In this document: one piece after another, positions 19,830 through 23,037 of the stretch
Numbering within the stretch: position 1 is the first letter of the stretch
Layout of the letters: each line of letters begins with the position of its first letter
Source: Escherichia coli
GTDB lineage: Bacteria; Pseudomonadota; Gammaproteobacteria; Enterobacterales; Enterobacteriaceae
Direction: 5' to 3' (one strand)
Assembly (NCBI RefSeq): GCF_003334405.1
Contig: NZ_QOWM01000009.1
Length of the DNA: 64,000 nt
The notes under the pieces: generated by a model
What the model was told of the DNA's origin: nothing
Seen by the model: only the letters and a program-made list of their open reading frames with translations
Databases searched by the model: none
Made by a program: the position numbers and the translations under genes

Positions 19830-20933
19830 ATGAACATAAAGGGTAAAGCGTTACTGGCAGGATGTATCGCGCTGGCATTCAGCAATATGGCTCTGGCAGA
19901 AGATATTAAAGTCGCGGTCGTGGGCGCAATGTCCGGTCCGGTTGCGCAGTACGGTGACCAGGAGTTTACCGGCGCAGAGCAGGCGGTTGCGGATATCAAC
20001 GCTAAAGGCGGCATTAAAGGCAACAAACTGCAAATCGTAAAATATGACGATGCCTGTGACCCGAAACAGGCGGTTGCGGTGGCGAACAAAGTCGTTAACG
20101 ACGGCATTAAATATGTGATTGGTCACCTCTGTTCTTCATCAACGCAGCCTGCGTCTGACATCTACGAAGACGAAGGCATTTTAATGATCACCCCAGCGGC
20201 AACCGCGCCGGAGCTGACCGCCCGTGGCTATCAGCTGATCCTGCGCACCACCGGCCTGGACTCCGACCAGGGGCCGACGGCGGCGAAATATATTCTTGAG
20301 AAAGTGAAACCGCAGCGTATTGCTATCGTTCACGACAAACAGCAATACGGCGAAGGTCTGGCGCGAGCGGTGCAGGACGGCCTGAAGAAAGGCAATGCAA
20401 ACGTGGTGTTCTTTGATGGCATCACCGCCGGGGAAAAAGATTTCTCAACGCTGGTGGCGCGTCTGAAAAAAGAGAATATCGACTTCGTTTACTACGGCGG
20501 TTATCACCCGGAAATGGGGCAAATCCTGCGTCAGGCACGCGCGGCAGGGCTGAAAACTCAGTTTATGGGGCCGGAAGGTGTGGCTAACGTTTCGCTGTCT
20601 AACATTGCGGGCGAATCAGCGGAAGGGCTGCTGGTGACCAAGCCGAAGAACTACGATCAGGTTCCGGCGAACAAACCCATTGTTGACGCGATCAAAGCGA
20701 AAAAACAGGACCCAAGTGGCGCATTCGTTTGGACCACCTACGCCGCGCTGCAATCTTTGCAGGCGGGCCTGAATCAGTCTGACGATCCGGCTGAAATCGC
20801 CAAATACCTGAAAGCGAACTCCGTGGATACCGTAATGGGACCGCTGACCTGGGATGAGAAAGGCGATCTGAAAGGCTTTGAGTTCGGCGTATTTGACTGG
20901 CACGCCAACGGCACGGCGACCGATGCGAAGTAA
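19830..20933 (+). CDS. livJ: Leu/Ile/Val periplasmic binding protein
   Basis: Start at [23 protein letters not shown] (signal peptide); 367 aa; ~80% identical by eye to livK downstream. Confidence 0.93.
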
Positions 20934-20990
20934 TCATTAATCGGCAACTTTGGGTTGCCGCCAAATTGCTAATATCGAGTACGTTGCTTC

Positions 20991-21092
20991 ATGCCGGATG
21001 CGGCGTAAACGCCTTATCCGGCCTACAAGATCCAAAGAAATCAGTAAATTGCAACACACATTGTAGGCCTGATAAGCGTAGCGCATCAGGCA
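20991..21092. repeat. BIME: two inverted REP elements downstream of livJ
   Basis: atgccggatgcggcgtaaacgccttatccggcctaca ... tgtaggcctgataagcgtagcgcatcaggca. Confidence 0.8.
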
Positions 21093-21120
21093 ATATCACT
21101 TTTGAAATCAAACTTGACGA

Positions 21121-21504
21121 TTAACACTTCTCCCAGCCGCCCTGTTGTGCCGTAAACCCCAGCGCCTGCATAAACGCCGTCATCACACCGCGATCTTCCA
21201 CGCCTGCATCCGCCATCCACCAGCATGAAACGCCAGGATTGTTACGCAAAACCTCTTCCAGCAGATATTGCCCCACACCGCGACGGCGGGTGACTTCCCG
21301 CACGCGCAGGGAATCCAGTGCTCCCTCGGTGCCGCTTAAGGTTACCCGCACGGCAGCGAGCAGGCGCTCGTTAAAACGCGCGGCGTAGATACGGTGGTTA
21401 TCGTCAACCTGTAACGAGGAAGGGGAATACTCCGGCCAGATCTTTTGCAGGTCAATCCGGTCTTGGTCGCTAAATTTTTCTAATCGAATGATGGTCAGCT
21501 TCAT
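21121..21504 (-). CDS. panM: PanD maturation factor (GNAT-fold)
   Basis: 127 aa ORF between livJ and livK; sequence consistent with PanM/PanZ. Confidence 0.85.
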   Translation of the reverse strand: MKLTIIRLEKFSDQDRIDLQKIWPEYSPSSLQVDDNHRIYAARFNERLLAAVRVTLSGTEGALDSLRVREVTRRRGVGQYLLEEVLRNNPGVSCWWMADAGVEDRGVMTAFMQALGFTAQQGGWEKC

Positions 21505-21927
21505 GGGTAACCCGTGTAAATCACAAAAGTGGAACCAGTGTAGCGAAATAATTTAATCGGAGGCTTTCTCTTTTTTATTTCTTTTGGCAGGTGATTAATT
21601 TTTTAACAGCAATAATTACAAAGTTAAAACATTAGAGAATGAAAAATGTCCAGCATAATCCCCTGAATGATAGTGAATTATTCCGCCCTTTGTGCCGTTA
21701 TTTTATGCTGACAAAGGCACTTTTTTCTGTTTATCTATCAATAAATTCAGAATATTATCTGTTCTTAATCGACTGAAAAATAGGGATTTTAATCGCTATT
21801 ATCACAAAATACTGCGCTAACCCCTTAATCAGACAGGCAAAAACAGTGCAGTATAAAAAAAGAACAGTCTGATTTGTTAACACATAAAAACAAAGCAACA
21901 CAACATCACGAATGGGGATTTTTGACT

Positions 21928-23037
21928 ATGAAACGGAATGCGAAAACTATCATCGCAGGGATGATTGCACTGGCAATTTCACACACCGCTATGGCTGACG
22001 ATATTAAAGTCGCCGTTGTCGGCGCGATGTCCGGCCCGATTGCCCAGTGGGGCGATATGGAATTTAACGGCGCGCGTCAGGCAATTAAAGACATTAATGC
22101 CAAAGGGGGAATTAAGGGCGATAAACTGGTTGGCGTGGAATATGACGACGCATGCGACCCGAAACAAGCCGTTGCGGTCGCCAACAAAATCGTTAATGAC
22201 GGCATTAAATACGTTATTGGTCATCTGTGTTCTTCTTCTACCCAGCCTGCGTCAGATATCTATGAAGACGAAGGTATTCTGATGATCTCGCCGGGAGCGA
22301 CCAACCCGGAGCTGACCCAACGCGGTTATCAACACATTATGCGTACTGCCGGGCTGGACTCTTCCCAGGGGCCAACGGCGGCAAAATACATTCTTGAGAC
22401 GGTGAAGCCCCAGCGCATCGCCATCATTCACGACAAACAACAGTATGGCGAAGGGCTGGCGCGTTCGGTGCAGGACGGGCTGAAAGCGGCTAACGCCAAC
22501 GTCGTCTTCTTCGACGGTATTACCGCCGGGGAGAAAGATTTCTCCGCGCTGATCGCCCGCCTGAAAAAAGAAAACATCGACTTCGTTTACTACGGCGGTT
22601 ACTACCCGGAAATGGGGCAGATGCTGCGCCAGGCCCGTTCCGTTGGCCTGAAAACCCAGTTTATGGGGCCGGAAGGTGTGGGTAATGCGTCGTTGTCGAA
22701 CATTGCCGGTGATGCCGCCGAAGGCATGTTGGTCACTATGCCAAAACGCTATGACCAGGATCCGGCAAACCAGGGCATCGTTGATGCGCTGAAAGCAGAC
22801 AAGAAAGATCCGTCCGGGCCTTATGTCTGGATCACCTACGCGGCGGTGCAATCTCTGGCGACTGCCCTTGAGCGTACCGGCAGCGATGAGCCGCTGGCGC
22901 TGGTGAAAGATTTAAAAGCTAACGGTGCAAACACCGTGATTGGGCCGCTGAACTGGGATGAAAAAGGCGATCTTAAGGGATTTGATTTTGGTGTCTTCCA
23001 GTGGCACGCCGACGGTTCATCCACGGCAGCCAAGTGA
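21928..23037 (+). CDS. livK: Leucine-specific periplasmic binding protein
   Basis: Start at [23 protein letters not shown] (signal peptide); 369 aa; first gene of livKHMGF. Confidence 0.93.

Follow-up and report, generated by a model that had tools for sequence, protein, structure and literature searches.

Old paralogs livJ and livK around panM in Escherichia coli, and one apparent fusion between them

The 64,000-nucleotide stretch of Escherichia coli DNA analysed here (the window) contains the rpoH / livJ / panM / livKHMGF locus, in which two related genes for amino acid-binding proteins, livJ and livK, stand on either side of the oppositely oriented panM. We hold it highly probable that this locus has the following history. 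The ancestral order would have been rpoH, panM on the minus strand, a control region of ~420 bp, one binding-protein gene and livHMGF. This gene would then have been copied into the interval between rpoH and panM, giving rise to livJ, and both copies would have evolved independently under purifying selection, leaving saturated synonymous sites and only short exact matches between them. In one public genome, that of strain EFF60, a single crossover within a 16-nt run of identity appears to have joined the two genes into a livJ'-'livK hybrid and to have deleted panM.

Results

Distribution and divergence of the binding-protein genes

Species-representative genomes were scanned with LivK, which gave 78 loci that were typed by tblastn. 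The order rpoH-livJ-panM(-)-livK-livH is present in about 50 species of Enterobacteriaceae, in genera that include Escherichia, Citrobacter, Kluyvera, Kosakonia, Enterobacter, Leclercia, Buttiauxella, Cedecea, Shimwellia, Mangrovibacter and others, and the livJ and livK orthologs are clearly distinguishable in every one of them. Another 24 species, belonging to Yersiniaceae, Pectobacteriaceae, Erwiniaceae and Hafniaceae, display the order rpoH-panM(-)-one binding-protein gene-livH, and their single binding protein shows 74-80% identity to LivJ and LivK alike. The single-copy order in four families suggests that panM and a binding-protein gene already formed a divergent pair in the ancestor, livJ being a later addition between rpoH and panM. 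An earlier description of the locus, made from the letters of the window (the sequence-only reading), had panM lying between tandem copies; this is corrected here to an addition of livJ on the far side of a pre-existing panM/binding-protein pair.

The unrooted neighbour-joining tree of the proteins (300 bootstrap replicates) separates LivJ, LivK and the single-copy proteins into three clades, recovered in 296, 300 and 300 replicates, respectively; two truncated loci, L039 and L067 (L numbers are our labels for loci), were not grouped as single-copy. The mean distance between LivJ and LivK across the ~50 species is 0.258 within a genome and 0.261 between genomes. Separate clades and equal distances within and between genomes indicate that, from the radiation of the family onwards, livJ and livK have not evolved in concert. 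The single-copy proteins are slightly nearer to LivJ than to LivK (0.241 against 0.267 in Erwiniaceae, for example), a small difference that would fit LivK being the more derived, leucine-specific form.

On gene content, the most parsimonious date for the duplication is the stem of Enterobacteriaceae. Alternatively, the duplication might predate the diversification of Enterobacterales, with Yersiniaceae, Pectobacteriaceae, Erwiniaceae and Hafniaceae each having lost one copy. The stems of the unrooted tree are nearly equal in length (0.125, 0.137 and 0.134), and the single-copy proteins are united in one clade, unlike what the species tree would lead one to expect, both of which are in favour of the older date. 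That history, however, requires several independent losses that always spared the gene in the operon position, whereas a single gain suffices to account for the shared rpoH-panM-gene-livH layout with its common spacer length; nor are the single-copy proteins, similar as they are to both paralogs, clearly orthologous to either. We consider the older duplication unlikely.

The age of the duplication is apparent in the sequences of the two genes. LivJ and LivK are 77% identical (284/369) and 87% similar as proteins (E = 0), with identical stretches of up to ~32 amino acids, and their genes share 73.8% of nucleotides (815 of 1104 aligned positions) and 49% of third codon positions; a 'mean column identity' of 87% for the two genes is an artefact of two-sequence majority scoring. 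Only two exact DNA runs reach 20 nt, with lengths of 26 and 25 nt. The sequence-only reading described the two translations as near-identical over long stretches; the DNA is much less alike. Of the two peptides it quoted, the LivK string is accurate, and the LivJ string begins with EDIKV and not DDIKV. Nei-Gojobori estimates yield 1.61 synonymous substitutions per site (dS, saturated) against 0.151 non-synonymous ones (dN), a dN/dS ratio of 0.093, and the proportion of synonymous differences (pS) lies between 0.48 and 0.93 in every 40-codon window, with none lower. Together with the separate LivJ and LivK clades across ~50 species, a dS of 1.61 and a dN/dS of 0.09 bear out the earlier statement that the duplication is old. 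Detectable homology ahead of the two start codons does not go beyond C/A-rich tracts and the Shine-Dalgarno block GAATGGGGATT.

The length of the exact runs varies between strains. A synonymous ACT/ACC polymorphism in a threonine codon lengthens the 25-nt run to 28 nt in CU39ES-1 and to 34 nt in EC19. The livK query finds a second place, a cross-match to livJ, in 137 genomes, which is consistent with this polymorphism, and because the 25-nt run is extended, the block of perfect identity in these ~137 genomes is longer than in the strain of the window. Gene conversion in these genomes was considered and rejected, as the polymorphism itself creates the word that megablast needs. Strain H29, with 81% of the query on ~2 kb, was likewise rejected as a deletion: its livJ-ataRT-panM-livK locus is normal, and the apparent deletion arose because cross-matches were joined via a 34-nt identical run in H29.

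An apparent livJ'-'livK hybrid in strain EFF60

We searched 5,426 complete E. coli genomes by megablast with positions 19560-23100 of the window. The segment is present in all 5,426, with a coverage of at least 80% in 5,417, and is 100% identical to that of E. coli strain 300709 and 99.9% identical to that of K-12 MG1655. MG1655 coordinates (NC_000913.3) are obtained by subtracting the window position from 3619488. A crossover between the direct repeats would remove panM, and the segment comprising panM and the spacer was accordingly sought in the same genomes. It was found in 5,425 of them. The exception is strain EFF60 (NZ_CP086678.1, GCF_023373585.1), from swine-manure effluent, in which rpoH is followed by a single gene of 1,087 bp, annotated as a frameshifted livK, and then by livH.

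The EFF60 gene was aligned with livJ and livK of the window over a stretch that includes ~130 nt upstream. Up to alignment column 812, the diagnostic sites are 206 of livJ type, 11 of livK type and 6 other; after this column, 125 are of livK type, 2 of livJ type and 3 other. The switch occurs inside the 16-nt run ACCCGGAAATGGGGCA (livJ 20506-20521 / livK 22604-22619), directly after the 26-nt run, within the 44-bp patch where livJ and livK agree best, and the junction reads GGTTATCACCCGGAAATGGGGCAGATGCTG. A separate deletion of 23 bp, bounded by CGC microhomology, lies in the livJ-derived part (window 20432-20454; ~6560-6570 of locus L004) and is the cause of the frameshift; but for this deletion, the product would be an in-frame chimera of 369 amino acids. 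Judging by its sequence, EFF60 appears to lack functional LivJ, LivK and PanM. The crossover would have removed ~2.1 kb, or ~2.9 kb if the ancestor carried the ataRT genes described below, and the pathway could be either RecA-dependent exchange or RecA-independent template switching.

The genes offer little to recombination. Shen and Huang in 1986 reportedly put the minimal efficient processing segment (MEPS) at ~23-27 bp. The perfect blocks available to livJ and livK are 26 and 25 nt long, within 1.1 kb at 73.8% identity, and reach 28-34 nt in some strains. Their closeness to the MEPS makes the pair a marginal substrate, one that is very poor but not inert, with a very low expected rate at 26% divergence; a review passage on the 1986 work describes the bacterial MEPS as at most ~30 bp (PMC8918686). 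Loss of panM causes beta-alanine auxotrophy in the laboratory (PMC3496974), so that selection would purge the deletions, and their frequency in the population is no measure of the rate at which they form.

The hybrid might also be an artefact of assembly, created by collapse of the paralogs, in which case the repeats would be left with no demonstrated recombination. It is found in a single genome out of 5,426, it carries the additional 23-bp deletion and a frameshift annotation, and the 30-mer spanning its junction occurs in EFF60 only among the fetched loci. The same 30-mer has no matches in a metagenome collection, a scan of almost no power, since the parental 30-mer matches only 12 times there. 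An identity of 74%, on the other hand, is too low for an assembler to collapse the two genes, and the hybrid makes one clean transition exactly at the longest near-identical patch, as would be expected of an event guided by homology. The genes on either side of the hybrid are intact, none of its neighbours carries a frameshift flag, and a 23-bp deletion with CGC microhomology is atypical of sequencing error. An artefact therefore seems to us quite unlikely. A literature search found no description of a natural livJ-livK fusion.

With the EFF60 gene taken as a genuine fusion, the proposal of the sequence-only reading that the repeats can mediate deletion or amplification, to be followed up by a search of population genomes for livJ-livK fusions or deletions, is supported for deletion by one strain of 5,426, with the junction in the best-matching patch, and amplification through the repeats has not turned up. 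That reading also held that too low or too patchy a nucleotide identity would speak against homologous recombination; the identity comes close to this (73.8%, two runs of at least 20 nt), yet the EFF60 fusion exists.

The 44-bp patch (20478-20521 / 22576-22619) may be a recurrent crossover hotspot. If so, in-frame events would yield a functional chimera of the N-terminal ~231 amino acids of LivJ and the C-terminal part of LivK, encoded directly ahead of livHMGF and driven by the livJ promoter, and the loss of panM would leave the cell reliant on external beta-alanine or pantothenate. This would provide a one-step natural route to rewired uptake of branched-chain amino acids in nutrient-rich niches. 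We give only a slim chance to this hotspot, taken jointly with the related proposal of a single Lrp complex considered below.

Duplications of panM were assessed in the same genomes, 4 of which contain two places for the gene. A chimeric query joining the 5' part of livK to the 3' part of livJ, which represents the reciprocal livK'-'livJ hybrid, found nothing at 95% identity or above in complete E. coli genomes, and its best match (90.5%) is plain livJ aligned throughout. Two places are also found for the 5' end of livJ in 5 genomes (one a split match) and for the livK-livH junction in 5. The chimeric query and the matching counts of the flanks led us to reject a tandem duplication between livJ and livK as the source of the second panM; the counts fit larger segmental duplications of the whole locus.

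The region between panM and livK

The 423 bp between panM and livK have a GC content of 0.30-0.35, against ~0.52-0.60 in the genes. Most species, with two copies or with one, have ~415-434 bp separating panM from the binding-protein gene that follows it, and the blocks CAGCATAAT, TTTTATGCTGACA, TTAATCGACTGAAAAATAGG and GCTAACCCCTTAA are conserved within this interval even in the single-copy families. Conservation of both length and blocks in these families indicates that the control region predates the duplication. Transcription of panM runs away from livK, starting from position 21504, and the same stretch would have to contain the panM promoter. The best-supported reading of 21505-21927 is a divergent panM/livK control region organised by Lrp, rather than a leader of 420 nt.

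The sequence-only reading had described an AT-rich livK leader of about 420 bp, in which the composition and length are right and the designation as a leader is unsupported, the region being divergent, with no match to an RNA family and no consensus structure. A genuinely long leader, of attenuator or riboswitch-like kind, would account for the conserved length and for the deeply conserved blocks, which include a good -10-like CATAAT at 21654-21659, the more so as the sole consensus promoter match on the plus strand (21773-21802) sits in a poorly conserved stretch. An Rfam search at E <= 1, however, gave no match in the 423-bp region and only a sub-threshold match elsewhere, related to repetitive extragenic palindromes (REP). 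RNAalifold found zero consensus base pairs over the proximal 180 nt in 12 genera, and folding of the E. coli region is not significantly more stable than that of shuffled sequences (z = -1.9). The AT-richness and the conserved phasing are explained by the divergent panM promoter, which we infer, and by strong Lrp occupancy. A long leader is accordingly improbable.

In strain 131 (locus L003, 6740-12740), a remnant of IS1 and tail genes of a lambdoid prophage lie ~68 bp upstream of the livK start, at about window position 21860. This insertion separates livKHMGF from nearly all of the conserved control region.

Regulation by Lrp and GcvB

Expression of livK is Lrp-dependent and leucine-responsive (PMC2374795), and Lrp occupancy is high at the start sites of both livK and livJ (PMC10127797). 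In the latter study, Lrp remains bound in the presence of leucine at livK-livJ alone among 142 Lrp-regulated transcription units, while expression there still changes. The two Lrp-occupied promoters (19606-19829 and 21505-21927) are 2.1 kb apart and flank panM. The livJ promoter and the panM/livK region could be bridged into one Lrp nucleoprotein complex, which would explain the leucine-resistant binding of Lrp. In strain 23AR0922 (locus L086, 2788-3485), an IS1B element interrupts the interval from the rpoH terminator to livJ, 148 bp ahead of the livJ start codon and at about window position 19682.

The 5' regions of livJ and livK were compared with the gcvB sequence of MG1655, in terms of exact complementary words only; whole-length RNAduplex energies were discarded, as they produced unrealistically long duplexes. 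Each gene has a perfect complement to GcvB (Table 1), for which the chance expectation is ~3e-4 (100 x 206 / 4^13), and the ACATCACGAA block at the livK site is conserved across genera. PMC9299463 lists both genes among the R1-dependent GcvB targets, with verification in Salmonella and conservation in E. coli. Just ahead of their start codons, both genes would have retained a C/A-rich stretch complementary to GcvB, and according to the literature both are under Lrp control.

The spacer between livJ and panM

The spacer between livJ and panM varies across Enterobacteriaceae from 44 bp to 3 kb and holds unrelated cargo. In the window it contains a REP-type repeat cluster, of which positions 20992-21026 (1433-1467 of the megablast query) match an unannotated part of a plasmid record; this query finds 10-53 places per genome (median 33). 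In O157:H7 EDL933 (locus L002, 3024-3824), in sequence type ST131 and in other E. coli, as well as in E. albertii and E. whittamii, the toxin-antitoxin module ataR-ataT fills this spacer. The stop codon of ataT overlaps that of panM by 4 nt in convergent orientation, so that a GNAT toxin abuts the GNAT-fold panM.

Other loci carry other genes. In Citrobacter amalonaticus (locus L010, 1201-4200), an open reading frame of 180 amino acids with a weak, sub-threshold NCBIfam match to MamQ adjoins a large membrane protein whose tail is rich in Gly and Ser, and a similar membrane protein is present in Superficieibacter (L037, 1836-4198). The 180-amino acid product may be LemA-like. A metagenome-assembled genome (L025, 1910-4203) has an acetyltransferase-like open reading frame and a Fic-domain protein in the spacer, and Klebsiella sp. 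BIGb0407 (L047, 2044-4227) has a TetR regulator and an MFS transporter; further loci with spacer cargo are L027 (3134-4191) and L024 (3446-4199). Accessory genes appear to have integrated into this spacer repeatedly.

Genes and products of the locus

The positions and names given to livJ, panM and livK by the sequence-only reading agree with the open reading frames, and RefSeq annotates the same three genes, next to livH, in the 5,417 complete genomes with at least 80% coverage of the segment. LivJ and LivK score 697 and 700 bits, both at full length, against the NCBIfam model NF011933 (cut-off 477). The PDB entries 1z15 and 2liv align to residues 24-367 of LivJ (E ~1e-229), and the LivK entries 1usg and 2lbp are also listed. 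The mature chains of all four align to LivJ from residue 24 to residue 367, which identifies residues 1-23 as the signal peptide of a secreted periplasmic protein; alignment with LivJ suggests a corresponding signal peptide in LivK. The GNAT-fold gene reported between the copies on the opposite strand is indeed panM, by the NCBIfam equivalog NF033213 (190 bits, cut-off 68), by Pfam PF12568 (PanZ, GNAT; 1.7e-57) with an additional match to Acetyltransf_1, and by near-identity over residues 1-127 to PDB 4cry_B and 2k5t_A (PanZ/YhhK; E ~1e-83).

LivJ, with broad specificity for Leu, Ile and Val, and the leucine-specific LivK act as alternative periplasmic binding proteins feeding the same LivHMGF ATP-binding cassette importer; these specificities and the sharing of the transporter are described in the literature (PMC12708883, PMC7373191). 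In the window, livH and livM follow directly 3' of livK, and livG and livF come after livM in annotated relatives, which links the binding-protein genes to their cognate permease and ATPase genes. PanM, an unrelated protein of GNAT fold, triggers the maturation of aspartate decarboxylase (PanD). The 47-bp spacer between livK and livH contains a GC-rich hairpin with a 7-bp stem, CCGCCCG-TAAAATG-CGGGCGG, at 23046-23066, which a terminator scan did not call a terminator, as it has no T-run. It may be a partial terminator or an mRNA-stabilising element that lets production of the binding protein exceed that of the membrane components.

Table 1. Positions of genes, control elements and regions of livJ/livK identity in the window
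Feature	Position	Strand	Remarks
rpoH (sigma-32)	18705-19559	+	Open reading frame; annotated in relatives; upstream neighbour in nearly all typed loci
Intrinsic terminator-like hairpin of rpoH with T-run	19576-19605	+	13-pair stem, then GTTTTTTGGG
livJ promoter and 5' untranslated region	19606-19829	+	Assigned by position; Lrp occupancy at the livJ transcription start site (PMC10127797)
Candidate GcvB pairing site of livJ	19783-19795	+	13-nt perfect complement ACAACATCACAAC to GcvB nt 64-76 (R1)
livJ, Leu/Ile/Val-binding periplasmic protein (LIV-BP)	19830-20933	+	367 amino acids; probable added, stand-alone paralog
Patch of best identity, livJ arm	20478-20521	+	44 bp: 26-nt exact run 20478-20503, 2 mismatches, 16-nt exact run
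Second exact run, livJ arm	20559-20583	+	25 nt
Repeat cluster of REP or bacterial interspersed mosaic element (BIME) type, livJ-panM spacer	20966-21100		Inverted repeat; sub-threshold naRNA4 match
panM (panZ, yhhK), GNAT-fold activator of PanD autocleavage	21121-21504	-	127 amino acids
Putative divergent panM/livK control region, AT-rich	21505-21927		423 bp; the 'leader' of the sequence-only reading
Candidate GcvB pairing site of livK	21896-21909	+	14-nt perfect complement CAACACAACATCAC to GcvB nt 67-80
livK, leucine-specific binding protein (LS-BP)	21928-23037	+	369 amino acids; first gene of livKHMGF; probable ancestral operon position
Patch of best identity, livK arm	22576-22619	+	26-nt run at 22576-22601
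Second exact run, livK arm	22657-22681	+	25 nt
livH, permease common to both binding proteins	23085-24011	+	Open reading frame, annotation
livM, second permease of the shared transporter	24008-25285	+	Open reading frame, annotation

Discussion

Long identical stretches in LivJ and LivK could be attributed to ongoing gene conversion between the genes, a proposal for which one might cite the second livK place in 137 genomes and the livJ part of EFF60, where 11 of 14 substitution differences from livJ of the window carry the livK base (three further 'other' sites fall in the 23-bp deletion and are outside the 14). It is effectively refuted, as a single synonymous ACT/ACC polymorphism explains the second places, the livK-type sites of EFF60 are scattered singletons that form no tracts, synonymous divergence is high in all 40-codon windows, and LivJ and LivK are each monophyletic across ~50 species and as distant within genomes as between them.

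Some points weigh against the history as we have given it. The single-copy proteins form one clade where the species tree predicts paraphyly, and the grouping 'JK+Erwiniaceae' appears in only 112 of the 300 replicates; the tree being unrooted, the timing of the duplication is based on the parsimony of gene content and not on the tree. The EFF60 fusion is documented by one public assembly, and the duplication of the whole locus in the genomes with two copies by matching counts, not by the individual genomes. The view of the panM/livK spacer as mostly promoter and operator instead of leader is an inference, and a start set by the conserved CATAAT (21654-21659) would in principle leave livK with a 5' untranslated region of ~260 nt.

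The discovery value of the locus is small, its genes, products, structures and regulators being textbook material. To this we make three modest additions: panM and the control region appear to be older than the duplication of the binding-protein genes, with livJ as the inserted copy; paralogs at 74% identity apparently still recombine, with the crossover in their longest surviving identical patch; and accessory genes seem to land repeatedly in the livJ-panM spacer. None of the three alters the understanding of the system.

The locus, its products, their structures and their regulators are already known, and match the LIV-I/LS systems of leucine, isoleucine and valine uptake, PanM/PanZ, and the Lrp and GcvB regulons. 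The LIV-I/LS locus of E. coli K-12 (livJ; livKHMGF), attributed to Adams et al. 1990 as cited in PMC12708883, agrees with the window in gene content and order, with 99.9% identity to MG1655, two binding proteins for one LivHMGF, Lrp control and GcvB sites, and shows no substantive difference from the window. PanM/PanZ (YhhK) is the established maturation factor of PanD (PMC3398536, PMC3496974, PMC4410942); the gene of the window does not differ from it, and the context added here is the divergent pairing with a binding-protein gene, conserved in five families of Enterobacterales. The ataR-ataT module, known as a GNAT toxin and its ribbon-helix-helix antitoxin from enterohaemorrhagic E. coli (PMC7595197, PMC7470980), occupies the same spacer in EDL933 and many other strains and is absent from the window, which has REP elements instead. 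Compared with homeologous recombination between diverged repeats in general, livJ and livK retain only runs of 26 and 25 nt that come near the MEPS, and the natural crossover appears to have taken place in the adjoining run of 16 nt.

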